From contig CAVPKK010000007.1 in NCBI GenBank assembly GCA_963705705.1, forward strand, positions 96,001 through 160,000: a stretch of 64,000 nt of DNA, written 5' to 3'. Each line of letters begins with the position of its first letter. Position 1 is the stretch's first letter. Below, piece by piece: positions 6,597 through 63,857 of this stretch. The notes under the pieces are model-generated. The model ran no database searches. It was not told the DNA's origin and saw only the letters and a list, made by a program, of their open reading frames with translations. The translations under genes and the position numbers were made by a program. This stretch comes from an uncultured bacterium. Lineage in GTDB: Bacteria; Babelota; Babeliae; Babelales; JABCYS01.

Positions 6597-6648
6597 CCGT
6601 TCGTCCTGAGTGTTTTGCGCAGCAAAATGTATCGAAGGATGCGAACGG
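6597..6648 (+). repeat. Palindromic repeat family A, long variant with an extra internal hairpin
   Basis: ccgttcgtcctgagtg-ttttgc-gca-gcaaaa-tgtatcgaaggatgcgaacgg. Confidence 0.8.
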
Positions 6649-6681
6649 CGGCCTTAATTCCTCAGCATTTCCGGAGAGCTC

Positions 6682-7614
6682 ATGACCCACCAAAAGACCA
6701 CCCTTTCAGACATTTTGCGCAATGTTTTCTATATCTTTTTAATCATTGCTATTGCCCCGCCCATCGTCCAACAGATATGGGGCTCATTTACGCGCGTGGC
6801 CGAAACCCGGACTAAAGTCGCCTGGGTCGAAATCGATGATTTAGTAGAAGATTCAGGGCCCTATGTGAGCCAGCTCAAAAAATATTTTGGCGATAAAGAA
6901 ATCAAAGCAATTTTACTTAAAATGGAGTCTCCAGGAGCGGTGGCGGGTTCTGCCCAAGCGTTATTTAATGAAATTATGCACTTCAAAAAGGAACATCCAA
7001 AACCGGTGATTACCCTAGTAGAAAATACCTGTGCAAGTGGCGGCTATTGGATAGCGTGCTCAGCAGATCACATTATTGCTTCATCAGTGGCTAAGATTGG
7101 TAGTATCGGTGTGGTAATTCGGGCATTCACCGTAAAAGATTTGCTTGACCAATATAAGATTCATTACACGCCAGTTACCGCAGGCGCCTATAAAACTGCC
7201 GGCGATCCATTTACCACGATGACCGAAGCGCAAAAGAAGATGTTGGATGAAATGACACATCAAACATATGAGCAGTTTACGGCTTCAATCGCAAGTCGCC
7301 GACCGAAATTATCTCTTAAGGATTTAAACACCTGGGCCGATGGCAAAATTTTTATCGGGGCTGAAGCATTAAAGCTTGGTCTGATTGATGAGTTAGGTTC
7401 AATTTCTACTGCCGAGGCGTGGCTGCGCAAACATGCATCGATCGAAGGAAAAATTGAATGGGTAAGAATGGAAGGCCCATCGCTTTGGGAACGATTCACG
7501 GGCAAAGCACACAGCTATTATTCTTCCGATACCTCGATGAATGAAGCCATGGTTGAAAAAATAGCTTCAAAAATAATGACGCAGCTTTCTGCTCACGGTT
7601 TCATGTTTGTTTAA
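6682..7614 (+). CDS. sppA: Signal peptide peptidase SppA (36K type, peptidase S49)
   Basis: ESPG, CASGGYWIA, GSIGV, YKTAG, ADGKIF, GLIDELG motifs; N-terminal TM helix. Confidence 0.93.
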   Translation: MTHQKTTLSDILRNVFYIFLIIAIAPPIVQQIWGSFTRVAETRTKVAWVEIDDLVEDSGPYVSQLKKYFGDKEIKAILLKMESPGAVAGSAQALFNEIMHFKKEHPKPVITLVENTCASGGYWIACSADHIIASSVAKIGSIGVVIRAFTVKDLLDQYKIHYTPVTAGAYKTAGDPFTTMTEAQKKMLDEMTHQTYEQFTASIASRRPKLSLKDLNTWADGKIFIGAEALKLGLIDELGSISTAEAWLRKHASIEGKIEWVRMEGPSLWERFTGKAHSYYSSDTSMNEAMVEKIASKIMTQLSAHGFMFV

Positions 7615-8558
7615 GACGACATACCAGATGCTTTGGCTGACAAAATTGCAACAGCAGTAATTGCGCGCATATCGATTAACGGCTTCACACTGATTTCGTA
7701 ATTAACACCAACTCGTTCGGCTTGCGTTATGCGGCCCAGAATAAATCCACGTGGGAATAATAGTCCTTCACCGCTTGTAATTACCACATCATCCGGCTGC
7801 ACTTCAAATAGATGGCTTATATGGCAGAGCTTGCCATTGTCGGTGGTATTATTGCCTTCATAGATGCCATATACCTGATGTTGCGTACAAATGGCTGAAA
7901 CTTTGCATGAGCGATCGGTGACCAGCAAAACTTTGCTCAGGTGCTCATATACTTCGGTGATGCGGCCAATTAAATTATTTTGGTAGACGCACACCATATC
8001 AACTTCCAGGCCTTGGTCTTTTCCGCCTTCAATGATGAGGAAGTGAGCGTCGGGGGAGATGTTTCTGAGGATTACGGGGGCGAGTAGGTTGTTTGAGGAA
8101 TTATCTATTTGTTTAAAATTCCGGTTCAAGTCGCTCTCGCGCTTCGATTCTTCGATTAACTCAGAATGAGCGCGGTTTAAATTATTTACGATTTTTTGGT
8201 CGTCAGCAATGTCATCCAAATTTGTAATAACATCATGTGTAATTGTTTCGTAGTGCAACGCAGCATGTGCATTTGCCAATGCAGATTGTGTCCAAGCAAG
8301 TTCTTGTTGTACGTTGTCGAGTTGTTGTAGTGCCTGTGCCACGCTCATGCGTTGTCGTTTTTTTTCTTTCCAATAACTAACCCATGAAGATTGCATAGAA
8401 AGGATTGGCTGCATAATGCGCGAAGCGTATTGCTCAGCAGTGCCAGGTTGGTGTGAAAAGAAACGATTGGCAACAAAAAATACTAAAATGGCGATTATAA
8501 GAAAATTAAGAAGCGGTTCCTTGTGCAGATTCTTTATGTTCTTCACGCGACTTGCCAT
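7611..8558 (-). CDS. mreC: Rod shape-determining protein MreC
   Basis: N-terminal TM, coiled coil, GKDQGL..DM, LIGRI.EV....SKVLLVTD, VITSGEGLLFPRG motifs. Confidence 0.9.
   Translation of the reverse strand: MASRVKNIKNLHKEPLLNFLIIAILVFFVANRFFSHQPGTAEQYASRIMQPILSMQSSWVSYWKEKKRQRMSVAQALQQLDNVQQELAWTQSALANAHAALHYETITHDVITNLDDIADDQKIVNNLNRAHSELIEESKRESDLNRNFKQIDNSSNNLLAPVILRNISPDAHFLIIEGGKDQGLEVDMVCVYQNNLIGRITEVYEHLSKVLLVTDRSCKVSAICTQHQVYGIYEGNNTTDNGKLCHISHLFEVQPDDVVITSGEGLLFPRGFILGRITQAERVGVNYEISVKPLIDMRAITAVAILSAKASGMSS
8138..8174 (-). repeat. Family A palindrome inside mreC, read in-frame as RAHSELIEESKR
   Basis: cgcgcttcgattcttcgattaactcagaatgagcgcg, nearly identical to intergenic copy 63177-63213. 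Confidence 0.9.
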
Positions 8559-11118
8559 TTACAATACGAAGATACAAACGTTTGGCAGATTCGATTGCCA
8601 CTAGATAAACAATGCAGAAGATACCAAAGTATCGCAGAAGTTGCCAATTCAATGGCACAAATTGGAAAAATTCTTGGCCCCAAGAGGTAAACGGAAGCCC
8701 AAGTGTTATGATTACCGAAAGTATCAATGGTGTGAGTAATGTGCGTGAAGGCGGTACTGCACGCCAGAATGGTTTATTAGAACGCACAACCAATAAGAAG
8801 ATCCCTTCTGAAAGCATACTTCCTACAAACCAACACGTACGCAATGTGGCAACGCCAAATTGGCTGAACCAAAGGAATAAAGAAAAATCGAATAATGAAC
8901 TGAACATACCCATGCCGGTCGTAAACATAGCAATATCTTTGAGGCTATACTGCTTTGGCTCTTTCAATTCAGAGGGTTCAACATAGTCAGTCGACAAAGC
9001 CAATAATGGGATATCAGAAAGAATGTTAAGCAATAAAATTTGGATAGGCAGTATTGGCAAATAGTCTACGAATAATGAAACGATAGCCATCGCATAGAAG
9101 TTGCCAAAACTACCCGAGAGACTCACCTTGATATATTTAATAGTGTTTGCGAAAATCGTGCGCCCATGATGAATGCCATCAATAATTACATGCAAACTTT
9201 TTTTGAGCAATACGATATCGGCGGCTTCGCGTGCAATGTCGGCAGCGCCCTCAACCACCATCGCCACGTGCGCGGCATGTAATGCAGGTGCGTCATTGAT
9301 GCCATCGCCCATAAACCCAACATGCTTACCATGGCTCTGCAACAATTTAATGATTTCATATTTTTGGTGCGGAGAAACACGAGCAAAAATGGCATAATCT
9401 TGTACCGCCTCGGTCTTTTCACGTTCACTCAGTTCAGCAAAAATATCGCCCATCATCACATCTTGAATAGATTTGCATAAACCAACCTGCACGCCCACAT
9501 AGCCGGCAACCTCAGGGCTATCACCGGTAAGGATTTTAATTTTTATACCAAGCTCTTGCGCAGATTTAATCGCAGAGAAGGTGCTGCTCTTGATTGGATC
9601 GACGAATGAAAGCAAACCAACAAAGGTAAGTGATTCCTCAGCTGCGCGCACATCGTCTGGTTTTGTTGCAAATTCACGTATCGCTATACCTATCACGCGG
9701 CGCCCTTCTTCTCCCTGATGAAACACAAATCGTTGAATGTCTTCACTTTGTTGTTGAGAAATATTATTTGTATGTTTAAGTAGCTCTTCGTGGCCACCCC
9801 ATACAATGAGAATGTATGAATCAGTAACTGGGTTATGAAATAGCTCACTGCTCCGTCTACGGTCAGGCTCAAATGGAATGAAAGCAACCGGCTGATGTGT
9901 GCACGCGAATTCTTTTGATGCATTGGCAGCGTGTGCCATAATTGCATCATCGAATGGCGATGCATTGGATGATTGACCTTCAGTACTACGGCCTGCACAG
10001 GAATGGTTGGCAAATAAGCAGGCGTAATTAAGTAATGAGTTTTGGGTAGAACCGACCTCATACTTATCAACCAATGTCAGTTTATTTTCCGTCAGCGTAC
10101 CGGTTTTATCCGTGCACAAAATATCAATACTTCCCAGATCTTCGATGGCGGTCAGTCGTTTTACGATTACTTTACGGCGTGCTAATTCCATTGCCCCTTG
10201 CGACAACGAAAGCGCGACAACCGTTGGCAATAATTCCGGCACAATAACAACTGCCAATGCGAGCACATAAATCCAATATTCAGGATCAAACAGCGGTGCA
10301 CCGCGCACAACAACGTGCATACCAATGGTGAGAATGCTGGCAACTATTACCATCCAGGCAATAAATCGTGAAAAGCGATTTATATTTTGCGTAAACAAAC
10401 TCTCTCTTTTTGATTCACTCAGCGTCTTCGCAATAGTGCCAAGCTCCATACGAGAGCCGGTTGCTAACACAACGGCATGGGCAGAACCAGATATCACGGT
10501 TGTAGAAGCAAAACAGAGATTAACTGCTTGATATGGTTGTTTGGGTTCTTGTTGCATAGCCGCATTTGTTTTTGCAACTGCAATTGTTTCGCCCGTGAGC
10601 GCTGATTCATCAACCTGAAAACCATGGCTTTGTATGATGCGCACATCGGCGGGAATGATATCCCCAGCTTCAAGGATAATAATATCGCCCGGCACAAGCT
10701 CGCGGGTAGGTATAACAATGACTGTTTCATCGCGAAGCGCATGGGTTTTGCTCACAATAAAATTTTTTAAATATAATAATGCGCGTGATGCTTTGTATTC
10801 CTGAAAAAAACCAAGCAATGCATTGATGGCAACGATCACAAGAATAATGCCTGCTTCAAGCATGTCTCGCGTCACAAAAAAGGCGATGGCAGCGGCACCT
10901 AAAAGTAGATAGACAAAAGAACAGTTAAATTGGCGCAAAGCTAGTTGGAACCATCCTTCTGTCTTTTGCACAATTTCGTTATAGCCATATTGCTTGAGAC
11001 GTTTTGTTACGTCTGCATCCTTAAGGCCCTCGCGCTGCGTCTCTAGGTCAGATAAAACTTGCTCTATGGATTGGGTGGCATACTTTGACAACATTTCGAA
11101 CTCCAACATTCTGCACAT
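8506..11118 (-). CDS. mgtA: P-type ATPase, MgtA-like (probable Mg2+ importer); true start may be 11094
   Basis: DESALTGE, PELLP, DKTGTLT phosphorylation site, TGD, GDGINDAPAL; multiple TM helices. Confidence 0.8.
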   Translation of the reverse strand: MCRMLEFEMLSKYATQSIEQVLSDLETQREGLKDADVTKRLKQYGYNEIVQKTEGWFQLALRQFNCSFVYLLLGAAAIAFFVTRDMLEAGIILVIVAINALLGFFQEYKASRALLYLKNFIVSKTHALRDETVIVIPTRELVPGDIIILEAGDIIPADVRIIQSHGFQVDESALTGETIAVAKTNAAMQQEPKQPYQAVNLCFASTTVISGSAHAVVLATGSRMELGTIAKTLSESKRESLFTQNINRFSRFIAWMVIVASILTIGMHVVVRGAPLFDPEYWIYVLALAVVIVPELLPTVVALSLSQGAMELARRKVIVKRLTAIEDLGSIDILCTDKTGTLTENKLTLVDKYEVGSTQNSLLNYACLFANHSCAGRSTEGQSSNASPFDDAIMAHAANASKEFACTHQPVAFIPFEPDRRRSSELFHNPVTDSYILIVWGGHEELLKHTNNISQQQSEDIQRFVFHQGEEGRRVIGIAIREFATKPDDVRAAEESLTFVGLLSFVDPIKSSTFSAIKSAQELGIKIKILTGDSPEVAGYVGVQVGLCKSIQDVMMGDIFAELSEREKTEAVQDYAIFARVSPHQKYEIIKLLQSHGKHVGFMGDGINDAPALHAAHVAMVVEGAADIAREAADIVLLKKSLHVIIDGIHHGRTIFANTIKYIKVSLSGSFGNFYAMAIVSLFVDYLPILPIQILLLNILSDIPLLALSTDYVEPSELKEPKQYSLKDIAMFTTGMGMFSSLFDFSLFLWFSQFGVATLRTCWFVGSMLSEGIFLLVVRSNKPFWRAVPPSRTLLTPLILSVIITLGLPFTSWGQEFFQFVPLNWQLLRYFGIFCIVYLVAIESAKRLYLRIVNGKSREEHKESAQGTAS

Positions 11119-12134
11119 ATGTGCTTGCTTGCATCTTCTGGCAACCTCTCAGCTGATCCTGGTACAGAACAAACATAGTTCCAGGCAGCAAGTGCTGCCA
11201 TGCAACCGCTGCCGGCCGCTGAAAGTGCTAAGGTATATGGTCTGCCACCAGGCAATGTGGCTACCGTGCCTGCTACAAAAACTCCCGGGACAGCAGTCGT
11301 TGTGGGGCCATTAATAAGCAGATAGCCATTTTCATCACGTTCTAATTGTGGTCCACACCAATCTGATCGCCCTTGTTCGCCGAGAGCAAGGAAAATTCCT
11401 GCTACAGGAATGGTATCGGTTTGGGCATCGACGCGTACGCCTGTGACTTTGGTACCATCACCGACTATCTCCGTTACATTTGTATTAAAGAGTACCGTTA
11501 TACCCTGCTGTGAGGTTAATTTTTTGCACAGTGAAGGGCATACGCCGAAATCTGATTCGCTGCAAATCATGGTGATATTGGAGGTGTATTGCTGCATAAA
11601 CATGGCTCTAGTTATTGCAAGGTCACCGCAGCCCACCACAACGATCGCTTTATTTTTAAATAAAGGCCCATCACAAATAGGGCAGACCGCTACACCGCGG
11701 CCCCAATACTTTTCCTCTCCGGGGCAATGGAGCTTTTGCGGTTCAGTTCCGGAAGCAATAATGATCGCCCAGGTGGTAACTGTGATACCATCGTCAAAAG
11801 TAAGAACGTATGGTGTTTCAGAGAAATCAACGGCAGTAACCGTTCCCGACATAAAACGCGCGCCTTGCGAAACTGCATGTTCTTGCATTCGCTCAATAAG
11901 TTCAGGCCCTGTAATTGATGGCTCACCTGGCCAGTTTTCTATAATACCGGCATAAATCAGGTTGCCTCCTGGATCATCCCCATCAATGACCAAAGGAGAA
12001 AGCTGCATGCGAGCGGCACATAATGCCGCTGATAAACCAGCAGGCCCAGAGCCGACAATTACCACATTATTAATGTCTTCAGCAGTGGCGAACAAGGGCA
12101 AACTTAATATGAGCAATAAACGTTTTAATCTCAT
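11064..12134 (-). CDS. trxB: Thioredoxin reductase-like flavoprotein with N-terminal signal peptide
   Basis: VVIVGSGPAGLSAA, IENWPG, GRGVAVCPICDG redox CxxC. Confidence 0.8.
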   Translation of the reverse strand: MRLKRLLLILSLPLFATAEDINNVVIVGSGPAGLSAALCAARMQLSPLVIDGDDPGGNLIYAGIIENWPGEPSITGPELIERMQEHAVSQGARFMSGTVTAVDFSETPYVLTFDDGITVTTWAIIIASGTEPQKLHCPGEEKYWGRGVAVCPICDGPLFKNKAIVVVGCGDLAITRAMFMQQYTSNITMICSESDFGVCPSLCKKLTSQQGITVLFNTNVTEIVGDGTKVTGVRVDAQTDTIPVAGIFLALGEQGRSDWCGPQLERDENGYLLINGPTTTAVPGVFVAGTVATLPGGRPYTLALSAAGSGCMAALAAWNYVCSVPGSAERLPEDASKHICAECWSSKCCQSMPPNP

Positions 12135-12301
12135 CGATATCTCCGCAATTCCTATTTCTGTTGTAACAAGAACAAATTAATGCACGCAAGACTTTGCAGC
12201 CGGTCGCGAAATGATTGTTATACAGCCACCAATTCTTGAAACAATTTAGTCAATAATATGAAAATATATCTAATAAACCGTGGCTTAATTTGAGGATCAA
12301 G

Positions 12302-13135
12302 ATGGCTAAAACAATCTGGAAAGGCTCAATATCTTTGGGCCTACTGAATATTCCCATCGAACTGTATACCGCAGTCCGCGAGCATGCGATAGGATTTAAA
12401 TTGTTGCACGCAAAGTGTCATACACCTATTCGTAATAAACGATGGTGTGATACATGCAATAAGGAAGTTTCATGGGATGAAACTATCAAAGCATTGCCGC
12501 TAGAACATAAAAATGGCAAGGAAGCATATTTTTTAATCACTCCTGATGCTCTCAAAAAACTGCGACCAGAAAAAACAGATACGATTGATATTGTTGAATT
12601 CTTAGAACATGAAAATATCCCGACGGTCTATTACGATAAGCATTATTATGCAGGGCCAAGCAGCAAAGCAAGTGAAAAGGCGTTTCTTTTATTTGTAACC
12701 GCATTGAGCAAAACAAAAAAGGTAGCCATCGGCCGCTTTGTGATGCGTGATAAAGAATATGCTGTTTGCATGGAACCATATAATGGCATTTTATTAATCA
12801 CCACGCTTAATTATGCGTATGAGGTGGTAGCCATTGATACTATTCCCGCATTAAAACGAGAGCACGGGCATCTAGAAGAAGTTAAAACGACTACACAAGA
12901 GATGGAAGTCGCTCAAAAACTGATCAGCCTGCAGACGGTTAAGAAGTTTGATATATCCGATTTCAAGGATACTTTTGCCGAAAAGTTAAAGGAAAAGATA
13001 AAGGAAGAGGCCAAAGGTCATGTGACAAAGCGTGTGCCTAAAGAAAAACCGAAGGCAGTAAAAGGCGAACAGCCTTCATTGCTTAAACTGTTGGAAGCTA
13101 GTATTCCAAAAGGCAGGAAAAGCAAAGTCAAATAA
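12302..13135 (+). CDS. ku: Non-homologous end joining protein Ku
   Basis: MAKTIWKGSISLGLLNIPI, TIDIVEF, YYDKHYY, GRFVMRDKE; basic C-terminal tail. Confidence 0.93.
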   Translation: MAKTIWKGSISLGLLNIPIELYTAVREHAIGFKLLHAKCHTPIRNKRWCDTCNKEVSWDETIKALPLEHKNGKEAYFLITPDALKKLRPEKTDTIDIVEFLEHENIPTVYYDKHYYAGPSSKASEKAFLLFVTALSKTKKVAIGRFVMRDKEYAVCMEPYNGILLITTLNYAYEVVAIDTIPALKREHGHLEEVKTTTQEMEVAQKLISLQTVKKFDISDFKDTFAEKLKEKIKEEAKGHVTKRVPKEKPKAVKGEQPSLLKLLEASIPKGRKSKVK

Positions 13136-13145
13136 AAGTCTTGCA

Positions 13146-13298
13146 CAAGCAACATAACGGAGACAGGCTCAGGATGAGCGGGGAGGGTTTAAATTGTCAG
13201 ATGATGTGTTGCCTACAAATTGAGAGGGTTTGGAGGGAGACTCTCTCCCTCCCGAGAACGATGGGGAGGGGTGTTAGGGGAGGGAACGGACCCTTAGC
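13146..13298 (+). repeat. G-rich intergenic element family C, copy 1 (contains a half family-A palindrome at 13162-13181)
   Basis: 5' block 20/22 and 3' block 35/36 identical to 24361-24444; internal hairpin ggagggaga-ctc-tctccctcc. Confidence 0.85.
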
Positions 13299-13377
13299 AC
13301 AAACCTAAATAACCAATTAAGGTGAATTAAGAAAATAGCCGTTCTTCTCAGTCCTTAAACTTCTCGATGAAATTGTT

Positions 13378-14283
13378 ATGGCTTATAAACTAAAACCAAT
13401 GCTCACCAAGCGCGGTGATAAGCATATACTTAAATCGCATGCTTATTTGTTTGAACCAAAACTTGATGGCTATCGCGCACTATGCGTAAAAAAAGATGGC
13501 AAGCTTCATTTCTACTCGCGCAACGGTCTTACTATGACCAAATACCCCGAACTGCAACATCCAAGCCTTATTAAAGCAAAATCAGCAATAGTTGATGGTG
13601 AAATTATTGCCTATGGACCAGACGGCATGCCGCACTTTCAAGCCTTGCAACAAGGCAATCGGGCCGTTTACATCATTTTTGATATTCTCGAGAAAAACGG
13701 CAAATCGCTGATTGATTTACCCTTAACTGAGCGCAAAAAGATATTGGCAAAGACAGTACGCGATGGTAAAGAAATTGAAAAAATATTTGATACTGCCGAC
13801 GGCGAAGCTCTGTGGAACCAAATGGTTAAGCATCATCTTGAAGGAGTTATGGCCAAGATACCGGACAGCAAATACTACCCAGGCGAACGGACGAGCGTCT
13901 GGCTCAAAGTTAAGATTCATGAAACAGTTGATGCGGTTATAGTTGGTTATACCAGTGAAAAAAGAAACATTTCTGCGCTCATATTAGGCCTGTATGATGG
14001 CAATCAATTGGTCTATATCGGCAAAGTTGGTACCGGGTTTAATGAAGAAAATATGGCCAAGTTGGAAAAAAAGTTTACAAACAAACACCGAGTAAAACCG
14101 CCAAAAGGCTTTGCGCCAAACAAAAAAGTTAAAGATGTACATTGGCTTTCACCGACCGTTGCCTGCGAAATCAAATATGCCAACGTAACAGGCGAAGGTA
14201 TCTTACGAGCACCTGTCTTTCTGCGCATACGCCATACCAAAACTGCAAAGCAATGCACAATCGACCAGATAAAAAAGGTTTAA
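13378..14283 (+). CDS. ATP-dependent DNA ligase (LigD ligase domain only / LigC-like)
   Basis: FEPKLDGYR adenylation motif, VDGEII, FDIL, EGVMAK, WLKVK, GKVGTGF, LRAPVF; next to Ku. Confidence 0.9.
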   Translation: MAYKLKPMLTKRGDKHILKSHAYLFEPKLDGYRALCVKKDGKLHFYSRNGLTMTKYPELQHPSLIKAKSAIVDGEIIAYGPDGMPHFQALQQGNRAVYIIFDILEKNGKSLIDLPLTERKKILAKTVRDGKEIEKIFDTADGEALWNQMVKHHLEGVMAKIPDSKYYPGERTSVWLKVKIHETVDAVIVGYTSEKRNISALILGLYDGNQLVYIGKVGTGFNEENMAKLEKKFTNKHRVKPPKGFAPNKKVKDVHWLSPTVACEIKYANVTGEGILRAPVFLRIRHTKTAKQCTIDQIKKV

Positions 14284-14299
14284 ATACCTTTTTTACAAT

Positions 14300-14331
14300 A
14301 AAAAAAAGGACCCCGAATTACCGAAGTCCTT
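14300..14331 (-). terminator. Intrinsic terminator of the DUF378-like gene
   Basis: Minus strand aaggacttcgg-taat-tcggggtcctt followed by a T run. Confidence 0.6.
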
Positions 14332-14352
14332 CTTATACAATAAATTGATTGG

Positions 14353-14628
14353 CTATCGATGAGAATGAGGTGGTGGGTTCATTTGGCATTCTTTGCCTGA
14401 CATACAGCGATAACTGTGTGCAAGTAAAGCGAATAAGCTTAATATACCGGCGATACCAATAAGATAGCCGAGGACAACCTTAGCGTGTGGGTGGTCCACC
14501 ATAAAATGAATATTATTAAAATCAAAAACATTAGCCGCTGCAAGCCCGATATTAATAGCAGCTAGTGCTACGATAAGCCACGTTAGTTTATAAACTAATC
14601 CGCCGCCTCTTGTCTGACACATACACAT
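14353..14628 (-). CDS. Small two-TM membrane protein, DUF378-like
   Basis: LVYKLTWLIVALAAINIGL ... YLIGIAG pattern. Confidence 0.65.
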   Translation of the reverse strand: MCMCQTRGGGLVYKLTWLIVALAAINIGLAAANVFDFNNIHFMVDHPHAKVVLGYLIGIAGILSLFALLAHSYRCMSGKECQMNPPPHSHR

Positions 14629-14766
14629 AGGGTCTCTCCTTTGTACAAAGTATTATAAAGACATTACATTATCACTCTACTTAACCTTTTGATGGTTTTG
14701 CAACAGTTTTTATCAAAGACAGACATAATGGCGTTATTACGCCACTTTTACGAGTAAAAATAACAT

Positions 14767-15888
14767 ATGAGTATCCAAGCGGGCCTCGTCGGCCTACCCA
14801 ATGTCGGTAAATCTACCCTCTTTAATGCGCTTACCAAATCGTGTGTACCAGCCGAAAATTACCCTTTTTGCACGATTGAACCTCATGTTGCCATAACACA
14901 GGTGCCGGATGAGCGTATCGACAAATTGGTCGGCATTTATGGCAGCCAGAAAGTAATACCGGCGACGGTAACCTTTGTAGATATAGCCGGTCTGGTAAAA
15001 GGAGCTGCGGCGGGCGAAGGGTTGGGCAACCAATTCTTGAACCATATTCGTGAAGTCGACCTGGTTTTGCATGTTCTTCGCTGCTTTGATGACGGAAATA
15101 TTATCCGCACTGGATCTGGTCCGGTTGAAGATTATGAAACAATTATGGCCGAGCTGATGCTCAAGGATGTGGAAACGATCGATAAGCGATTGGCAAAGCT
15201 CCAGCAGCTTATCAAGGCCGCCCGCATGAAGCCGGCTGAGCTCAAAGAGTTGCAACTTGAAGAAGTATTGGTGCAGAAAATTAAGGATGCCTTAGAACGT
15301 GGCGATGCAAAAGCTGTTCGCACATTAATGACTCCTGCCCAGGCTAAAATCACCCCACTGCTTTCAGCCAAAGAGTTTTTGATCCTTGCAAATATCTCCG
15401 AACATGAGCTTGAGGGTGATGCCTATAAAAATAATCCGAACGTACTGGAACTCATTAAGACCTTCGGAGTCGACCGCGTGATTCCTGTGTGCGCCAAAGC
15501 AGCTGGCGAACTAGTTCGCCTTACGGTTGAAGAAGCCGCCGAATTTGCCCAGATGCTTGGCATGAGTGAAGATTACCAACGCAATGCAGGTCTGAAAGGT
15601 ATCATTCGCAAAAGCTATGAATGGCTTGGCCTTATTACTTTCTTCACCTGCGGTCCTAAGGAAGTGCATGCGTGGCCAATCAAAAAAGGTCTTACGGTTC
15701 GTGCCGCAGCCGGCGAAATCCATTCCGATCTAGAACGTGGCTTTATTTGTGCTGAAGTATTCAATTGCAAAGATTTATTTGAAGCGGGCAGCGAAGCGAA
15801 GTTGCGTACGACTGGTAAGCTGCGCACCGAAGGCCAGGATTATATTGTCCAAGATGGCGATATATTGAACATTAAATTTAATGTGTAG
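14767..15888 (+). CDS. ychF: Redox-regulated ATPase YchF
   Basis: GLVGLPNVGKSTLFNALT, NYPFCTIEP, DIAGLV, GEGLGNQFL, C-terminal TGS domain. Confidence 0.97.
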   Translation: MSIQAGLVGLPNVGKSTLFNALTKSCVPAENYPFCTIEPHVAITQVPDERIDKLVGIYGSQKVIPATVTFVDIAGLVKGAAAGEGLGNQFLNHIREVDLVLHVLRCFDDGNIIRTGSGPVEDYETIMAELMLKDVETIDKRLAKLQQLIKAARMKPAELKELQLEEVLVQKIKDALERGDAKAVRTLMTPAQAKITPLLSAKEFLILANISEHELEGDAYKNNPNVLELIKTFGVDRVIPVCAKAAGELVRLTVEEAAEFAQMLGMSEDYQRNAGLKGIIRKSYEWLGLITFFTCGPKEVHAWPIKKGLTVRAAAGEIHSDLERGFICAEVFNCKDLFEAGSEAKLRTTGKLRTEGQDYIVQDGDILNIKFNV

Positions 15889-15891
15889 CAG

Positions 15892-16233
15892 ATGACCTCA
15901 ATTGCTCGTGGCATTACCAAATTCACTGAACGCGAAATCCAACACTTATTTGCTACCGCGCGTCCAGTTTTGCGCACACCAGCAATTGAAATCCGAACCG
16001 CGCCGGCGACATTGGCATATGGCCGCGTGCTTATCGTAATTCCACGCCGCGTTGGCACGGCGCCTGAACGCAACAAGATCAAACGATGGATTAAGGCATT
16101 GTTTTACCAAGAAAAATGGTACGCCGCCGGCCTTGATGCCATCATGCTCATCCGGCCCGCGGCTAAAGAATTGGATTATTATAAACTCAAGGCGCTACTG
16201 AGTAATATATATATTAGAATCAGAGCAAGTTAA
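15892..16233 (+). CDS. rnpA: Ribonuclease P protein component
   Basis: RRVGTAPERNKIKRWIK (RNR motif); size; yidD downstream. Confidence 0.8.
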   Translation: MTSIARGITKFTEREIQHLFATARPVLRTPAIEIRTAPATLAYGRVLIVIPRRVGTAPERNKIKRWIKALFYQEKWYAAGLDAIMLIRPAAKELDYYKLKALLSNIYIRIRAS

Positions 16234-16235
16234 GT

Positions 16236-16270
16236 CCGCTCATCCTGAGTTAATCGAAGGATCAAAGCGG
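16236..16270 (+). repeat. Family A palindrome
   Basis: ccgctcatcctgagttaatcgaaggatcaaagcgg immediately after the rnpA stop. Confidence 0.92.
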
Positions 16271-16289
16271 AAAAAAGACTAATAAATCA

Positions 16290-16466
16290 ATGCGAATGAT
16301 AAATACATGCCTTACAACCCTGCTCACCAACCTTCGCCCGCTCCTCGGCCCGGCTGCGTGCAAATATCAAATCTCGTGCGGCAACTACGCTGTCCTCTTA
16401 TTAAAAACAGAACCGTTCTATCGCGCATTGCCCAAAATTGTTATCCGTCTATTTAGATGTATTTAA
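16290..16466 (+). CDS. yidD: Membrane protein insertion efficiency factor YidD (58 aa, absent from the ORF track)
   Basis: LRPLLGPAACKYQISCGNYA...IRLFRC matches the YidD cysteine pattern; canonical position after rnpA. Confidence 0.75.
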   Translation: MRMINTCLTTLLTNLRPLLGPAACKYQISCGNYAVLLLKTEPFYRALPKIVIRLFRCI

Positions 16467-16469
16467 AAA

Positions 16470-16507
16470 AGAAAACGCCGTGAACAAATTTGCTCACGGC
16501 GTTTTCT
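16470..16507. terminator. Bidirectional intrinsic terminator
   Basis: agaaaacgccgtga-loop-tcacggcgttttct between convergent genes. Confidence 0.85.
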
Positions 16508-16540
16508 AAGCATTACAAAAGATTGTATGCGTTTCTGTCT

Positions 16541-18601
16541 TTATACAACTGATAGATTATCAAATGTATCAGGCGTCTGACCCAAATTATTAGTTACTTC
16601 TGGCGGGAAGCCCGTTGAATGGCTCCAAGTTCTTATTGGCGTATCGGCCGATAAGCCCCATGTCACTAAATTCTTGGTGTAATTTAATCGACCATTATTA
16701 TAGGCGATGTTGTTAAGAAACACATTGCCAAGTGTATTTACTGAGTTTGAGCCATCGTAGAAGCCGGCAACTGTATTATCATACGCAGTATTGCCGCGCA
16801 CAATGGCATTTCCAGATTGCAAAGTCGTTGTTGTTGTAATCGTTGACAATGCAACGCCTATACCATTGCCATAGCTCACGCAATCTAATACCGATGATTC
16901 AACTGCCCAATTAACCAAGAATCCGTACGCATGACTTTGCAACGGACAGAAAACGCTACCAGAGATACAATTTTCAAATACCACTTGATTAGGGAAATTG
17001 CGTGTCTGAAGGCCAGTATCAATGTCAGCCGCAAAGCCTGCAGCAATTATTGTGGTTGTTAGTGCATTAGAAGTATTTGCAATATTCAATGCAACACAAT
17101 TTTTGACGCTTGCAGCACTAGCTTCGTTAAAATTATATCCATTTACTAGGTTGGTAGAACCAAAAATATTTTGCACTACGCAATCTTCCACGCTTATCGT
17201 ATTAACAGCAGTACTTCCGCCAGTGACAGCAATACCTTCAACGACGTTAAGACTTGTAGTCAGACTTGCTGTGTATGTGCTTGTTAAATTTTGTACTACA
17301 CAATTACGCACGGCCACATTAGCACTTGCGAACAAATTAATTCCACCGCAAATTGTGCCGGAACCGCCACTCACACCCATAAAGTCAGTGGTCATATTTT
17401 GAAAAACGCAGTTGGAAATAGCTAAACTTTGGGCGAATGAACTCGTTAAGCCAATCGCTTGCTTAAATCCAGTGATCGCTGCCGCAATGCAATTATCAAT
17501 TGTTATCTGAGATGGATTTGAGGATAGATGAAAACCGTATGCAAATTCATTAGTCGATGTAATTGAATAGCTTTCGCAGTCTCTAATTGTTGCGTAGGTT
17601 AAATGTGTTGGGTTACCTTCACCAAAAAAAGATAATCCGGAACATAAGCCAACATTACTCAGATTGTAAAACGTACAGTTTTCAACCAAAGTATGTAATG
17701 TCTTATTAAAAACAGCACCATACACTTGATTATCGAGATTTACGCCATTCACAAATTGAGTGCTGAACGTAGAGAAATTATCGTGGAAGTTACTATTTTT
17801 TACTATTAGATCATTGCTTATTCCGTCAAGTGCCAATCCAGCTGTTTGAATAGCAGGTCCATTATGATTCAATGTTGCACCGAATGGCCCGTTGAACGAT
17901 CCGTCAATTGAATCAATCAATACGTGCAACGCGCCTTCGCGAATGAGTAACCCTATACCCCCATTGTAATTGAATTGAGAATTTTTCACTGAAATGTCTT
18001 GGGAATTTTGCTGGATTTCTGTACCAACAAATCCATTTGAATTAGCCGTCAGATGATCGAGTGTAATATTTGAGCAATTTGGGCTAACCAAAATTGCAGT
18101 ACTGAATGTGCCTATAACTGAACCATTTTGGATCGTTACATTTTGCATATTCGGATTTACTTGAATACCGATAAAACCATCATGACCACCACCATTGATT
18201 GTGCGATCATTCAGTTCCAATGTTACTTGACTGGCGTTGATGGTAATCGCGGTACCTAAGCTAAATGCAATATCTTGAGCTAATGAATATTTACCGGAAC
18301 AGTTAATTACCAGCGGTATGTCGCATTGGGTAATAATATAACCGCTACCAAGCCCGGCTGCTGCACGAACAATTTCATCTTTTATGCAGAATGACAGCGG
18401 GCAAAGTTCGATTTCGACCCTAGGGCAACCCGTTGTAGGATAGCAACAAGGGGTTACAGCCGAAAGTGATGCCGTAGCGAAAAGCACCATTAAACTAACT
18501 GCTTTGACTTTAGTTAGAAACGATTGAGCTATCGAGTGATCGAATGACCACGCGAATGCTGGTCGAATTGAATGATGGTTCATACCATGTCTCCTGCGCA
18601 C
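16541..18601 (-). CDS. Exported right-handed beta-helix repeat protein with a Cys-rich N-terminus (start uncertain)
   Basis: VINCSGKYSLAQDI, AITINASQVTLELN, many ..N.TI.NC repeats, N.A..N C-terminal turns. Confidence 0.75.
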   Translation of the reverse strand: MRRRHGMNHHSIRPAFAWSFDHSIAQSFLTKVKAVSLMVLFATASLSAVTPCCYPTTGCPRVEIELCPLSFCIKDEIVRAAAGLGSGYIITQCDIPLVINCSGKYSLAQDIAFSLGTAITINASQVTLELNDRTINGGGHDGFIGIQVNPNMQNVTIQNGSVIGTFSTAILVSPNCSNITLDHLTANSNGFVGTEIQQNSQDISVKNSQFNYNGGIGLLIREGALHVLIDSIDGSFNGPFGATLNHNGPAIQTAGLALDGISNDLIVKNSNFHDNFSTFSTQFVNGVNLDNQVYGAVFNKTLHTLVENCTFYNLSNVGLCSGLSFFGEGNPTHLTYATIRDCESYSITSTNEFAYGFHLSSNPSQITIDNCIAAAITGFKQAIGLTSSFAQSLAISNCVFQNMTTDFMGVSGGSGTICGGINLFASANVAVRNCVVQNLTSTYTASLTTSLNVVEGIAVTGGSTAVNTISVEDCVVQNIFGSTNLVNGYNFNEASAASVKNCVALNIANTSNALTTTIIAAGFAADIDTGLQTRNFPNQVVFENCISGSVFCPLQSHAYGFLVNWAVESSVLDCVSYGNGIGVALSTITTTTTLQSGNAIVRGNTAYDNTVAGFYDGSNSVNTLGNVFLNNIAYNNGRLNYTKNLVTWGLSADTPIRTWSHSTGFPPEVTNNLGQTPDTFDNLSVV

Positions 18602-50266: not shown

Positions 50267-50282
50267 GTTTTCCCCAGATGAA

Positions 50283-51605: not shown

Positions 51606-51621
51606 GTTTTTCCCAGGTGCT

Positions 51622-59482: not shown

Positions 59483-59995
59483 GCAAATTTTAGGCACGTA
59501 CCCATTCAAGGTACGTATTCCTTCGAAACATATTCCATTTGAATGACTTAAGTATTGTATTAGAGCATAATCTGGCCGTCAAAAGGCTGGAGGCGCATTT
59601 TTGGTCAAAAATGGACAGGCAAAGAGCTAACTATAGCCAGACTCAGAGCCAATATTGCCTATTTTTTACGAGCTCAGCTTTTTCGCAAAAAATCAATGGT
59701 TTCTTTTCTATATGTGCAAAATGGCCGGGTCAATGCGCTCTCTATTGTTACACGGTGGCAATTTTTGGACGTTTCGGCACTAGTTTTTAAGGAAAAAATG
59801 GGCTGATTTTTGATGTTTTCAATGGCATGGGGTCAAATTTCAATATGGTTATTCGCCCATATACTTACAGGCAACCAGTGAAAAAAGGTCCATAATTAAG
59901 GCCTATGATCGAGTTTGTTATCGAGCACTTTTATATACCGCGCAAATCCGGTACATTTAATAGTAATTAATAAGCCGGGTCTTGGGGGAATTTTA

Positions 59996-62191
59996 ATGGT
60001 TCACAGATTATCATGGTATCTAACAGCCATTGTGTTAGCCGTTCCATTAATCGCGATTGCGCCTGATACAGATATATCAACGGATGAGTCTGCTGCCGAT
60101 GATATTCCTTCGGCGGAACTGGTTGTCTCCTTCAATCAATCGGTAGATGAAAAATTTGTAGAAGATGCAGAAAATTCTCGAGCCCCAAAATCTAGAAATG
60201 CCATATTCTATGCGATAGCAGCCGGTGATTTGGAAGCGGTGCGACAAATTATTATTTTTGATGAGGATGCACTTAATAGAGCATATGAATATAAAGCGAC
60301 TGAAAAATCCTTCGATGGCTTTCATTCAAGCCCCTATAATGGCGATACGCCACTCATCTATTTAGTAAAGACCATCATTGATCTGCACAAAGCATATGAC
60401 TCAAGAAAATTCTCTGATGAATTCACTATCCAACTAGCATTCGAACATCGCTTTACTTTGGTATCTGAGATCTTATTTCATCCCAAAACAATCAGCTCTG
60501 GTGAAAATGCCGATGGACATACGGCTGTTACCTTGGCCGCCCAGGCCGGGCTTGTACGGTTGGCAAACTTGCTTAGCAGCGGAACTCATCCTGCACCCAA
60601 GCAAACTGACGTTAGCCAATTCAAAGCACGGTTAGCAAAATTGGATGTGTCAGCTGAAGTGCGCAAGCGCATTAATGCAGAAATTGATGTGCTCGGCCAA
60701 AAGCATCCGGCTGAACGTGGTTTGCAGATTAATTTCATCAATGCCTTATTGGATTTGCCCTGGGACAAAACAGCTGATACCGCCGTCGACATTGCTACTG
60801 TGCAAGAAGCGCTTGAATCCGAGCATTATGCGTTGAAGAAAGTTAAAGACGCGGTACTTGATTATCTTGCGGTCGCATCGGTGAGCCAATCTCTTGGGAA
60901 AAGCAAAATAATCTGCTTAGTCGGCCCGCCTGGAACGGGTAAAACATCGGTTGTGCAATCAATTGCTCGAGGGCTTAATCGACCATTGGCAAAAGTATGT
61001 CTTGGCGGTGCACATGATGAATCGGTAATTCGCGGGCACAATAAAAGTTATATCAGTGCCACGCCCGGTGAAATTATAAAAGGCATTATTCACGCCAAGG
61101 TAAGAAATCCGGTCATTCTCTTAGATGAAATAGATAAAATTGGGACCAGCCAATATAACGGCAACCCTTCATCTGCCCTACTCGAAGTGCTTGATCCCGA
61201 ACAAAATCATTCATTCATCGATCGCTTTGTCGAAGTACCATTCGATCTTTCAGAATGCCTCTTTATTGCTACTGCCAACTCTAAACGAGAAATTCCTCTG
61301 CCATTGTTGGATCGCTTAGAAATTATTGAAGTGCCTGGTTATTCTTTGGAAGAAAAGGTACAGATTGCGCAAAATTACTTGGTACCCAAAATAATACGGG
61401 AAGCAACATCGACTGAGCTAATTTTTGACATTGGCGAGGATGTAATTCGCTCGATCATAAAAAATTACACATTCGAATCTGGGGTGCGCAAATTGACGCA
61501 GCATCTGAAAACCTTATTTGCCAAGACGGCGCGGCAATATCTAGACAAGCGAACGGTGCCGATCATCACTCCGGAAAATCTTACGGAATATCTAGGACCT
61601 TCATTTAATTTCCCCCGCCTCTCACAGGCGCCGGCAGTGGGCATTGTTAATTGCTTATCAGTTTCACCTGGTTTCGGCGGAGCAACCAGCTTTTTGGAAG
61701 TGGTGTTGGTACCAAATGGAAAAGGTGATTTAAAGGTTTCCAAAGTGCTTGAAAATGATAGTGAAAATGCTGCTGCCATTGCACTGGCCTATGTTCGTTC
61801 ACATGCACAAGAATTAGGTATTTCAGCTTCGCAGCTTTCTTCAAACGATATTCATGTGCACAAACCTGGTATTGGACATGTCGACGGCCCTTCTGCCGGT
61901 ATCGCCAATGTTACAGCCATGGTATCTGCCTTCACCAATAAACTATGTGATCCAACTTATGCTATGACTGGAGAGCTGAGCTTGACCGGTAAGGTGATGG
62001 CCATTGGTGGATTGAAAGAAAAGATTTTGGCGGCCAAGCGTGAAGGCATTAAGAAAGTTATTATCCCGCGTGAGAATGAATCGGAATTATATGATTTTAA
62101 GCAGTTGCTCGATGGTATTGAGATTATACCAGTCAGTGATGTGCGCGAAGTATTAAGTAAAGTTTTGTTACCGAATTCAAGAAAAAGGTAA
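59996..62191 (+). CDS. lon: Lon-family ATP-dependent protease with signal peptide and ankyrin-like N-terminus
   Basis: GPPGTGKT, LLDEIDK, ALLEVLDPEQN, PLLDRLE, DGPSAG, AMTGEL.LTG, GGLKEK. Confidence 0.9.
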   Translation: MVHRLSWYLTAIVLAVPLIAIAPDTDISTDESAADDIPSAELVVSFNQSVDEKFVEDAENSRAPKSRNAIFYAIAAGDLEAVRQIIIFDEDALNRAYEYKATEKSFDGFHSSPYNGDTPLIYLVKTIIDLHKAYDSRKFSDEFTIQLAFEHRFTLVSEILFHPKTISSGENADGHTAVTLAAQAGLVRLANLLSSGTHPAPKQTDVSQFKARLAKLDVSAEVRKRINAEIDVLGQKHPAERGLQINFINALLDLPWDKTADTAVDIATVQEALESEHYALKKVKDAVLDYLAVASVSQSLGKSKIICLVGPPGTGKTSVVQSIARGLNRPLAKVCLGGAHDESVIRGHNKSYISATPGEIIKGIIHAKVRNPVILLDEIDKIGTSQYNGNPSSALLEVLDPEQNHSFIDRFVEVPFDLSECLFIATANSKREIPLPLLDRLEIIEVPGYSLEEKVQIAQNYLVPKIIREATSTELIFDIGEDVIRSIIKNYTFESGVRKLTQHLKTLFAKTARQYLDKRTVPIITPENLTEYLGPSFNFPRLSQAPAVGIVNCLSVSPGFGGATSFLEVVLVPNGKGDLKVSKVLENDSENAAAIALAYVRSHAQELGISASQLSSNDIHVHKPGIGHVDGPSAGIANVTAMVSAFTNKLCDPTYAMTGELSLTGKVMAIGGLKEKILAAKREGIKKVIIPRENESELYDFKQLLDGIEIIPVSDVREVLSKVLLPNSRKR

Positions 62192-62195
62192 GTCG

Positions 62196-62846
62196 ATGAT
62201 GATTACAAGAATAGCTTCTTTAGCCCTTCTGCTAAATATTTGGACCTTACAGGCATCTCCGGTGGTTGCACATAATTTACCGATTAGAAGTTCTAATCAA
62301 AAACTCACGCCAACGGAAATGCTGGCGGTCGGTATTATTACTGCATCACCAAGCTTGGTTGCAACGGCAATAAAGAAAGGCGCCTACTTGCGCGTGCAGA
62401 TAGATCAGTTTGGTGATACACCACTGATGCTTGCCATTCGTGTGTTTGGTCATTCATTGAAAACGCAATTGGAAGCAAAATCAAGCCGTTTACAGAGACT
62501 CTGCAGTTTTGCTTCTGGATTAGTTATTTCCCAATTGCTCATGTGGCAAGGCTCTAAATTTATACCAGACAGATGGCAATCGGCGTATAACATTTTCAAT
62601 CTTGCCGCGCTCGTCGGCCCTGTTGGCTATTATGCCCGTCAATCAATGAAACCCACAATCGCTACCCAACGCGCCGCACGCATTATTCTTATGCTGATGC
62701 AGCAAGATCCTCAGATGAGCCTTCGCAATCATGAAAGCCTCACACCAAAGGATATCCTTGAAGCGTTTTATCCTATCGCCCGTACGCTGCAAAGTGAAGA
62801 ATGGTTTACTTTGCGACGAATCTTCTCGCAGTTGAATGTTGGGTAA
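62196..62846 (+). CDS. Exported/membrane protein with a split ankyrin-like repeat
   Basis: Signal peptide, DQFGDTPLMLAI, two hydrophobic segments, RNHESLTP.D. Confidence 0.6.
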   Translation: MMITRIASLALLLNIWTLQASPVVAHNLPIRSSNQKLTPTEMLAVGIITASPSLVATAIKKGAYLRVQIDQFGDTPLMLAIRVFGHSLKTQLEAKSSRLQRLCSFASGLVISQLLMWQGSKFIPDRWQSAYNIFNLAALVGPVGYYARQSMKPTIATQRAARIILMLMQQDPQMSLRNHESLTPKDILEAFYPIARTLQSEEWFTLRRIFSQLNVG

Positions 62847-62907
62847 TCTAAAATTTAGTCACTTCAGTCTAAATTGAGTCTTGAAAGCTTTGATTCCTTA
62901 ATGTTGA

Positions 62908-63217
62908 TGATTAAGTCTCCTCAGCGCTCATCCTGCATGTCCGCCAAAGCTCATGGAGTTGTAGAAATTCTTACTGACGCAAGGAGACCGCGCTCATCCT
63001 GAGTTAATCGAAGGATATAGCGCGCGAAGGCAAAATGCATCGGCGGAAGTTTATCGAAGGATAAAAGCGCTACAGCGACATTGCCGACCCATAATAAATT
63101 TGTAGTTCCTTTAGTCCTTGAATAAATTTATTCAAAGGAGGAATGATTTTTTTATTGCCGCTTACTATGTCTTCCTCGCGCTCTGATTCTTCGATTAACT
63201 CAGAATGAGCGCGGCGT
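62908..63217. mobile_element. Internally deleted (non-autonomous) copy of the GIY-YIG cassette, with nested palindromes
   Basis: Both arms match 63337-63857; family A copies at 62923-63071 (split), 62989-63024 and 63177-63213. Confidence 0.7.
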
Positions 63218-63336
63218 GGGTATACTGATTCAATAGGTAGAGATGTAGCTAGCCGATGATAAATTAAATTGTAGACCCTTTAAAAGATTGCTATTTAGCC
63301 ATTAAGTAGCTGAAAAATTTATTATTCTTAAGATTT

Positions 63337-63857
63337 TGATTAAGTTTTTAGCGCTCATCCTGAGTTTATCGAAGGATAAAAGCGCTACAGTGATATTGTT
63401 AACCCATAACCAAATCATAAAATCCATCCTTTAACTTATGAATCATTTCTTCGTTTACATCCTTAAATGTAGCAACGGCAGATTTTACACCGGACACACC
63501 GACAACCTCGAACTCCGACTATCCGAACACAAACAAAGAAAAGACCCAAAATGCTATACCGCAACCCGCTTGCCGATCCAATTGGTTTTTCATGCCGTTT
63601 TTGAGTCCCGTGAAGCAGCCTTTAATGCTGAAATGAAGATCAAAGGATGGTCCAGGGAGAAAAAGGAAGCCTTAATTAATGGTGATTGGGAGGAACTGAA
63701 GCGGCTGTCCAATTTAAAAAATGATTTGGCCAATTCGCAATCATATTGGCGATCGATATCGTTTGAGATATTAAAGGATGTATGAATTCATTTATTACCG
63801 CTTACTGAGTCTTCCTCGCGCTTTTATCCTTCGATAAACTCAGGATGAGCGCGGCGT
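63337..63857. mobile_element. GIY-YIG nuclease cassette bracketed by inverted family A palindromes
   Basis: 63350-63386 (+) and 63817-63853 (-) flank a single gene. Confidence 0.7.
63438..63785 (+). CDS. GIY-YIG nuclease (UPF0213/YhbQ-like)
   Basis: FVYILKC...FYTGHT.NL..RL.EH, YT..R.P, A...E..IKGWSR.KKEAL. Confidence 0.93.
   Translation: MNHFFVYILKCSNGRFYTGHTDNLELRLSEHKQRKDPKCYTATRLPIQLVFHAVFESREAAFNAEMKIKGWSREKKEALINGDWEELKRLSNLKNDLANSQSYWRSISFEILKDV

Follow-up and report, generated by a model that had tools for sequence, protein, structure and literature searches.

The window analysed here, a 64,000-nucleotide (nt) stretch of contig CAVPKK010000007.1 from an uncultured bacterium of the Babelales, contains about 15 dispersed palindromic repeats and, at positions 63438-63785 on the plus strand, a gene for a small GIY-YIG nuclease bracketed by two of these repeats in inverted orientation. 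We regard it as probable that the repeats are the cognate hairpins of this nuclease, that is, that the two form a pair like the Ssn nucleases and their NTS or SRM hairpins, and that the repeats move, or are copied, as small elements. The repeat family itself, the covariation of its stems, its link to the gene across phyla and the differences in presence and absence of copies between congeners are direct observations. How the enzyme binds and cuts, on which strand it acts and how copies spread we infer by analogy with the Ssn nucleases, as follows. The enzyme would recognise the hairpin on one strand while the DNA is single-stranded, and the cut would fall near the 5′ side of the hairpin, which bears a conserved tag; the copies flanking the gene being inverted, both tags would lie at the outer ends of the cassette. 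Nuclease activity, directly or via repair and copying, may then spread solo hairpins and composite units, with new copies landing mostly between genes, sometimes in-frame within genes and sometimes in other copies. The complementarity of the stems may have been kept because only a foldable copy is recognised, and the elements would be more likely selfish than useful to the host.

The hairpin repeat family

A sequence-only reading of the window had listed some 15 copies of a palindrome with compensatory stem changes, and that description held. The motif was present at all 15 sites named. Ten of these hold full copies, meaning full-length matches to a covariance model trained on copies from the same genome; two more hold variants that carry an additional stem, another two hold a half copy and a split copy, and the last holds a decayed relic. 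A regular expression made up of the repeat core and a complementary 4-nt inner stem matched 12 times in the window, versus 0-1 times in each of 20 dinucleotide-shuffled windows, and 131 times in the whole genome (1.38 Mb, 43% GC, 96.4% complete), versus 1-2 times in each of 10 shuffled genomes. The covariance model, which the same reading had proposed as a check, was trained on 82 aligned short-loop copies; when the whole genome was searched with it, 151 matches were obtained at E <= 1, of which 116 were full-length at E < 0.01, 10 of those lying in the window. The dispersed palindromes are real DNA hairpin repeats, present at about 120 per genome.

The usual form is CGCGCTCA-TCCT-GAG-TTnA-TCGA-AGGA-TCAnAGCGCG, about 37 nt long, and forms with extra or nested stems measure from 54 to about 130 nt. 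Four features make up the repeat: a 5′ tag (CGCTCA, CGCTCG or CGTTCG), a variable and covarying stem, an unvarying T-GAG...TCGA-A core and, usually, an outer stem. Two subfamilies, A (GCGCTCA..TTnA..) and B (CCGCTCG..CCTG..), could be told apart, together with a long-loop class carrying an extra stem (CCGTTCG..GAGT[stem]GTATCGA..), a further subfamily of the CCCC/GGGG class, and composite forms of about 110-130 nt, recurrent in the genome, in which members of the family are nested. All of the inner-stem variants (TCCT/AGGA, TTCT/AGAA and CCCC/GGGG) and outer-stem variants (CCGCT, CGCGCT, AGCGCT and CCGTTCG) noted from the letters are present, and the extra hairpins that the loop had been said to accept were confirmed and fold as single-stranded DNA (ssDNA). 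The short forms fold as ssDNA at -8 to -12 kcal/mol, with z-scores of -2.8 to -4.0, on either strand. Several A-type copies also continue alike on the 3′ side (GAAnATGAGCTATGnCGRGACTT), so that the repeat unit may be longer.

Covariation was measured within the genome on 134 distinct model matches. Among these, 85.3% of the cells were paired versus 77.7% in shuffles, with 0 of 500 shuffles as high, and sliding the partner column as a control lowered the paired fraction to 31-53%. Double-sided changes were found at 9 of the 12 pairs (e.g. GC 56/CG 40 and CG 112/UA 15), and the pair just inside GAG/TCGA occurred as UA 84/CG 33/GC 3. GAG was retained in 112 and TCGA in 105 of the 116 full-length model matches, in line with the near invariance claimed for both. 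A search with the 5′ tag and any complementary 4-mer yielded 628 candidates, 100 of them with both GAG and TCGA, and is a set swamped by chance matches. The in-genome covariation reflects a few amplified subfamilies rather than many independent events, and independent evidence was therefore sought in other genomes.

This evidence came from 80 loci around homologues of the nuclease gene (43-62% identical at the protein level; one genome per species; 240 kb in all), which span Legionellales, other Gamma-, Beta- and Alphaproteobacteria, Thermodesulfobacteriota, Chloroflexota, Nitrospirota, Bacteroidota, Fibrobacterota, Cyanobacteria and Dependentiae. Hairpins were chosen by their TGAG-N4-YCGAA core alone, which gave 189 distinct sequences, 154 of them with a perfectly complementary N3, and the first 150 were analysed. 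In this set 98.3% of the cells were paired versus 70.8% in shuffles, and the three variable pairs each took three to five standard pair types (UA 65/CG 46/GC 26; CG 78/GC 59; CG 101/GC 39), with T-GAG/TCGA-A invariant. The 5′ tag CCGTTCG (GTCA in Bacteroidota) is conserved across phyla and the 3′ flank is not, so that the element is asymmetric and has a direction. The proposal that selection acts on a single strand that folds and carries a site recognised by its sequence is thus supported by the covariation and the unvarying core, within the genome and far more strongly across phyla. In long-loop forms the junctions across phyla read GAGT[stem]GTATCGA or GAGG[stem]GTCTCGA, the nucleotide that follows GAG covarying with the one that precedes TCGA. 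This junction may resemble tandem G-A pairs or a k-turn.

A nuclease cassette and its link to the hairpin

The sequence-only reading listed the hairpins soundly and overlooked their likely partner, the gene at 63438-63785 (+). It encodes a 115-amino-acid (aa) single-domain protein matching the GIY-YIG family (Pfam PF01541, E 1.3e-14, residues 4-76). Only two GIY-YIG matches were found in the genome, the other lying in a 433-aa frame, so that this is the only small one found. The protein has no extra DNA-binding domain, as is typical of Ssn-type proteins. Its AlphaFold model (predicted local distance difference test score, pLDDT, 82.7) has a beta-beta-alpha-beta-alpha-alpha core and one C-terminal helix; the best fold matches to the model were, in order, UPF0213 proteins, Slx1, HIGLE and UvrC, and the predicted fold thus resembles that of the structure-specific nuclease Slx1. 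Y7, Y17 and E65 are invariant across 41 homologues. NCBIfam returned for the protein just a sub-threshold group I intron endonuclease (18.5 versus 56 bits), and no match was found in PADLOC or PHROGs.

The left hairpin of the cassette (63350-63386, +) ends 52 nt before the start codon, and the right one, inverted (63817-63853, -), begins 32 nt past the stop codon. That is, the order is plus-strand hairpin, 52 nt, open reading frame (ORF), 32 nt, minus-strand hairpin, and the gene with an inverted hairpin on either side is a compact cassette of insertion-sequence shape. Directly upstream lies an ORF-less unit (62923-63213), whose leftmost 55 nt and rightmost ~90 nt are shared with the full cassette. 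The hairpin at its left end is split (62923-62936 and 63047-63077), and after a spacer of ~100 nt the one at its right end follows at 63177-63213 (-), a full-length model match with a TTCT/AGAA-type inner stem. From these shared ends the unit can be read as an internally deleted sister cassette that kept both ends. The left hairpin of this derivative is split, after CATCCTG, by a 110-nt element (62937-63046, +) with a hairpin of its own at 62989-63025, itself a full-length model match. A second copy of the 110-nt element was found on contig C5:59561-59661 (84% over 101 nt); the element, which occurs at least twice, has GTCCGCC..AGCTCAT-type ends around an A-type hairpin. Four soil DNA runs over 59900-64000 gave short contigs at low depth, with one unsupported joint.

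Relatives of the nuclease numbered 487 at E <= 1e-5, mostly of 92-110 aa. Among the 80 loci, an N3-TGAG..YCGAA-N3′ hairpin with complementary N3 was found in 73, versus a shuffle mean of 3.2 of 80, for a total of 243 matches versus 3.25 in shuffles. Hairpins occurred within 150 nt on both sides of the gene at 48 of the 80 loci, the layout with a plus-strand hairpin upstream and a minus-strand hairpin downstream was seen at 41, and hairpin density fell from 3.7 per kb near the gene to ~0.2 per kb past 450 nt. On several annotated homologues, the C-terminal tails LRQAQGER and STSSPR are the translated downstream hairpin, and the homologues of Sphingobium subterraneum and a Sphingomonas plasmid run through the downstream hairpin into the frame of the next gene (a 365-aa open frame; tail ..RSERALRLRSGRTRE). 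Read-through of the repeat thus inflates the annotated proteins. At one locus, on an uncultured Coxiellaceae contig (L091:1328), a canonical NTS/SRM hairpin stands ~170 nt upstream of a clade gene that is flanked by TGAG..TCGAA hairpins, which indicates that both repeat classes can share one locus.

Co-occurrence was examined in 150 other Dependentiae genomes, the gene being scored as a homologue at E <= 1e-20. The gene was found in 48 of these genomes and model matches in 59, giving a gene by hairpin table of 38/10/21/81 with an odds ratio of 14.7, a figure to be read with the reservations that the genomes are related, so that the P value is overstated, and that at most 40 candidate hairpins were scored per genome. 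At least 5 hairpin matches were present in 32 of the 48 genomes with the gene versus 13 of the 102 without it.

Placement of the copies and competing explanations

In relation to ORFs (our own crude calls; 1124 ORFs covering 89% of the genome), 65 of the 116 full-length copies are intergenic, 7 lie across ORF ends and 44 within ORFs, so that the 11% of the genome that is non-coding holds far more copies than its share. Spacers between co-directional genes contain 21 copies oriented with the genes and 16 against them, and convergent and divergent spacers hold 12 and 13 copies, respectively, near their shares of spacer length. Twenty-three copies are at least 100 codons from either end of such a crude ORF, 15 of them sense and 8 antisense; sense intragenic copies mostly read RAHPEFIEGSKRE, the commonest, or ALILSLSKD, and in-frame copies were seen in ORFs on both strands.

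Comparison with a genome of the same genus (G102), whose contig C2 is syntenic with 8.3-24.9 kb of the window at 71-77% identity, a divergence too high for defining insertion ends, revealed that the relative has no copy at any of the 3 orthologous sites with alignable flanks. One of these is the copy at 8138-8174 (-; TTCT/AGAA variant), which is in-frame within the linker of the MreC ORF 7611-8558 and is read ..RAHSELIEESKRE..; both sides of MreC align to G102 at 71-73% identity and the copy-bearing linker does not. The copy in MreC thus sits within an intact ORF whose relative is uninterrupted, a behaviour like that of the Rickettsia palindromic elements. The two other sites are the truncated copy at 13162-13183 (-), an intergenic 5′ half alone, and the intergenic copy at 23207-23243 (+).

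The remaining intergenic copies upstream of the cassette region are a long-loop copy at 6596-6649 (+), with a CCGTTCG outer stem, a TCCT/AGGA inner stem and a GTTTTGC/GCAAAAT stem added in the loop (ssDNA fold -12 kcal/mol, z -4.0), and copies at 16235-16271 (+; outer stem CCGCT/AGCGG) and 36917-36953 (+; outer stem CGCGCT/AGCGCG). Near the 16235 copy is a strong terminator-like hairpin (16470-16507, -; 17 pairs and then a T-run) that is no member of the repeat family, and a 2.6-kb segment at 16121-18774, which includes a 686-aa ORF (16541-18601, -), has no counterpart in the syntenic G102:C2:30594-30865. A leucine-rich-repeat gene contains the decayed relic, GATCATCCTGA..GCGAAAG, at 30214-30250 (+), which was missed by the covariance model. 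Three tandem ankyrin-repeat paralogues (46720-53973, -; 585, 608 and 783 aa) each have a repeat-derived segment ~75-130 codons from the start. These segments are a composite nested element of ~110 nt at 48139-48250 (+; inner hairpin 48208-48237) within ORF 46720-48477 on the opposite strand, a CCCC/GGGG variant with an extra stem at 49937-49974 (-) within ORF 48488-50314, and a copy without the 3′ outer stem at 53583-53619 (+), within ORF 51622-53973 on the opposite strand and read ..ILRHAQDDR... Either the insertion is older than the gene duplications and the segments then diverged in place, or the region is a preferred landing site. Elsewhere in the window, 33754-36576 (-) encodes a 940-aa FtsH-like protease with two AAA modules ahead of its M41 peptidase domain.

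Three other explanations were weighed against a cognate pair of nuclease and hairpin. The hairpins may have come first and the GIY-YIG cassette may be a homing element, for which they serve as adjacent or internal insertion targets. The link would then be one of target choice, and the hairpins would owe their spread to a separate process, such as a different transposase, gene conversion or palindrome-associated template switching. Members of the family do enter hairpins, as with the 110-nt insert after CATCCTG and the nested composites, hairpins are present in 21 of the 102 genomes in which the gene was not found, G102 included, and the lack of a target duplication is also in favour of homing. 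We nevertheless consider it unlikely, given that on each side of the gene, both in the window and at 41 of the 80 loci, there is a complete hairpin, the two being inverted, and not one half of a split copy; that the stems adjacent to the gene differ by locus with core and tag the same, which fits ends travelling with the gene; and that no other candidate enzyme was found, the search having covered Y1/RAYT, which gave no match, and no other transposase families. A little less likely still is a domesticated system, in which the host would cut ssDNA at marked places (incoming DNA, or recombination or replication intermediates) and keep the repeats for that purpose. One intact gene with ~120 repeats in a reduced 1.38-Mb genome would suit such a role, for which there is a precedent in transformation, and repeats of this kind are enriched in symbionts (PMC11893778). 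The gene, however, is patchy (48 of 150 genomes at E <= 1e-20; not found in the genomes of the same genus and family), frequently occurs in several copies and has broken copies in relatives, and its 50-60% protein identity across phyla suggests horizontal spread; the copies, for their part, were kept at 0 of 3 orthologous sites, track spacer length and occur in ORFs.

Whether the folded strand was ssDNA or RNA had been left open by the sequence-only reading, and of the two it is ssDNA that we favour. As a motif in transcripts (a stabiliser, a terminator, a protein-binding motif or a k-turn-like junction) the element would have what is typical of structured RNAs, namely conserved junction nucleotides, covarying stems and an optional third stem, and its long-loop forms keep GAGT..GTATCGA or GAGG..GTCTCGA across phyla. 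Such a role is very improbable all the same, since the copies have no bias in transcription direction, do not resemble terminators and occur in-frame in genes. In addition to the 21 copies with and 16 against the genes, and the 13 divergent and 12 convergent ones, in proportion to spacer length, antisense orientation was seen for 8 of the 23 copies deep within genes, no more than one of the two copies at the nuclease gene can be sense given their inverted arrangement, and SsnA does not bind RNA (PMC11893778). The repeats have no T-run, and among 29 terminator-like sites in 5000-24900 none corresponded to any of the 4 full copies there; on this ground and on the 21 versus 16 orientation, the repeats do not fit an intrinsic terminator. 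The comparison with Rfam (release 15), another check that had been proposed, gave no repeat match: the only gathering-score matches in the window were 3 tRNAs, and at E <= 1 the repeats returned nothing or plant microRNA and small nucleolar RNA models far below threshold (38.7 versus 211 bits). Hammerhead and other ribozyme cores were set aside as candidates, since they are not compatible with the conserved letters, Rfam being the sole test run on this point.

The reading of a cognate, Ssn-like pair must itself be set against several observations that do not favour it, beyond the relatedness of the co-occurrence genomes and the limited scoring of hairpins in them. The 13 of 102 gene-less genomes with at least 5 hairpins include the congener G102 (10 matches, no gene), and 10 of the 48 gene-bearing genomes gave no model match. 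The subterminal sequences of the cassette were found nowhere else in the genome, so that there is no sign of recent cassette movement here, and no target-site duplication was found (identical 2-nt flanks at 10 of 73 copies versus 5 of 73 in a shifted control; nothing of note at 3-5 nt). Copy orientation was not associated with GC skew (odds ratio 0.94), a weak proxy for replication here, and G-T versus A-C mismatches gave no strand signal (46 versus 82; 44 versus 33 without one bulge-adjacent pair), so that nothing in this genome singles out one active strand. Moreover, the search motif for SRM hairpins, HGTCWYN(0-2)YYVSBRHN(0-5)WNVSBRGN(0-2)RNCYNB, matched once in the 1.38-Mb genome, at no repeat copy, and once in the 240 kb of the 80 loci; around the gene on the Azospirillum lipoferum 4B plasmid, a bona fide SRM-flanked exemplar, it matched 4 times. 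Finally, a profile built from the nuclease clade scored YazA (UPF0213) at 78 bits and the Azospirillum Ssn exemplar at 55 bits, and repeats are not known to accompany UPF0213 proteins.

Comparison with known systems

In the open-access literature searched, no description of this hairpin, no match to any of four 16-nt strings from its core and no pairing of GIY-YIG with repetitive extragenic palindromic (REP) sequences was found, and a single paper (PMC11893778) links Ssn, GIY-YIG, single-stranded DNA and hairpin. The present analysis adds the likely cognate gene in this genome and its sister cassette with the deletion, hairpin counts and covariation across phyla, the table of co-occurrence, the negative result with the SRM motif and a placement for the enzyme.

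Like REP/REPIN-RAYT systems, the family consists of short palindromic repeats in about a hundred copies, with clustered and composite forms, a single-copy enzyme gene flanked by inverted copies and recognition presumably as single-stranded hairpins. It differs from them in having a GIY-YIG enzyme instead of an HUH tyrosine transposase, and no GTAG tag; a search for Y1_Tnp/RAYT (PF01797) gave 0 matches in this 96.4%-complete genome, the control being positive in 6 of 14 known genomes. As with the Rickettsia palindromic elements and intragenic REPs (PMC3733652), the repeats occur as in-frame palindromes within genes that stay intact, in an intracellular bacterium, and contribute short peptide loops. 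For those families no cognate enzyme has been proposed, unlike for the present one, and CGTC-tagged REPs are described as having no dedicated transposase (Di Nocera et al. 2013, PMC3733652).

Among solved structures, the best match to the nuclease was with UPF0213 proteins of the same size (YazA and YhbQ; 1zg2 and 1ywl; E 5e-14, Foldseek rank 1-2). The yazA locus examined, however, has neither type of hairpin within 800 nt of the gene, and a C-terminal motif, KGW..DW..L, is common to this clade and the Ssn type and absent from UPF0213. In a maximum-likelihood tree of 25 sequences, six UPF0213-like (YhbQ/YazA) proteins separated from the nuclease clade plus two Ssn-type sequences with support of 94/95; the Ssn pair is on a very long branch, and the nuclease clade was monophyletic in just 49% of the bootstrap trees. 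As for size, the repeats described here are much shorter than the Rickettsia elements.

The closest resemblance in kind is to Ssn and its NTS/SRM hairpins. SsnA of Neisseria meningitidis is a 94-aa GIY-YIG protein of the cd10448 group, which binds the NTS hairpin only as ssDNA (Chenal et al. 2025, Nat Commun, PMC11893778) and places its cut upstream of the hairpin, a few nucleotides away; it loses its activity when Y6, Y17 or E64 is changed. Among homologues, 42% have SRM hairpins on both sides, and in Neisseria the NTS/SsnA pair has a role in transformation, for which domestication was proposed (PMC11893778). The system described here likewise joins a single-domain GIY-YIG protein of ~95-115 aa, with Tyr, Tyr and Glu conserved at matching positions (Y7, Y17 and E65 versus Y6, Y17 and E64), whose gene is bracketed by hairpin repeats, to a dispersed population of the same hairpin in about a hundred or more copies, mostly intergenic. 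The repeat is asymmetric like NTS, its stem being preceded by a conserved 5′ tag (CGTCAT in NTS; CGCTCA, CGTTCG or GTCA here), and, as in Ssn systems, there is enrichment in intracellular bacteria. The sequence-only reading would have been set aside had the family matched a characterised REP class with a known cognate enzyme; what was found is an Ssn/SRM-like system in kind, whose repeats do not match the published SRM motif. Unlike in SRM, the stem is broken by an unvarying GAG/TCGA internal loop, extra stems are tolerated and nesting occurs; about a fifth to a third of the copies are within ORFs, unlike the 2% reported for NTS (PMC11893778); and the protein is only ~39% identical to the SRM-flanked exemplar and probably falls in a clade of its own.

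The table of that study points the same way, in that species bearing the clade have no SRM enrichment (Legionella worsleiensis 8 versus 5.2, Sphingobium subterraneum 34 versus 33, Thalassolituus pacificus 16 versus 19; PMC11893778). Thalassolituus pacificus is entered there as cd10448 by psiblast, and as negative for a Conserved Domain Database (CDD) score >100 and for tblastn to SsnA (PMC11893778), and we found its small GIY-YIG genes to be one of this clade and one YhbQ-like, with no others. The genome of Legionella worsleiensis holds a large multi-copy set of small GIY-YIG genes: of its 15 GIY-YIG matches ~12 lie in small frames, and internal stops occur in some. Taken together, the failed SRM motif, the profile scores, the tree and this table lead us to treat the enzyme as belonging to a separate clade, probably a neighbour of Ssn, and the hairpin as belonging to a different class.

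A wider proposal, which we put forward tentatively and hold to be rather doubtful as a whole, is that the hairpin, together with the 95-115-aa GIY-YIG nucleases of its own clade, makes up an autonomous mobile-element family spread over many phyla. The enzyme would then serve as "transposase" both for cassettes with hairpin ends and for their solo or nested miniature derivatives, a GIY-YIG counterpart of REP/RAYT that writes short peptide loops into proteins, and would offer a second, structurally distinct set of hairpin-guided ssDNA nucleases with a recognition logic unlike that of SRM. If the enzyme does cut at the hairpin, a repeat of very many phyla would be explained, together with spurious peptide tails on annotated proteins (LRQAQGER, RAHPEFIEGSKRE), site-specific ssDNA nucleases with a different recognition site would be on offer, and mobile hairpins would still be reshaping the reduced intracellular genomes of Dependentiae by inserting loops in proteins such as MreC. 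The published SRM motif would miss the whole class, so that SRM-based surveys would undercount such systems. Cutting at the hairpin would also mean that the principle known from Ssn, that of a tiny nuclease reading a single-strand DNA hairpin, holds for one more hairpin architecture and one more clade of enzymes.

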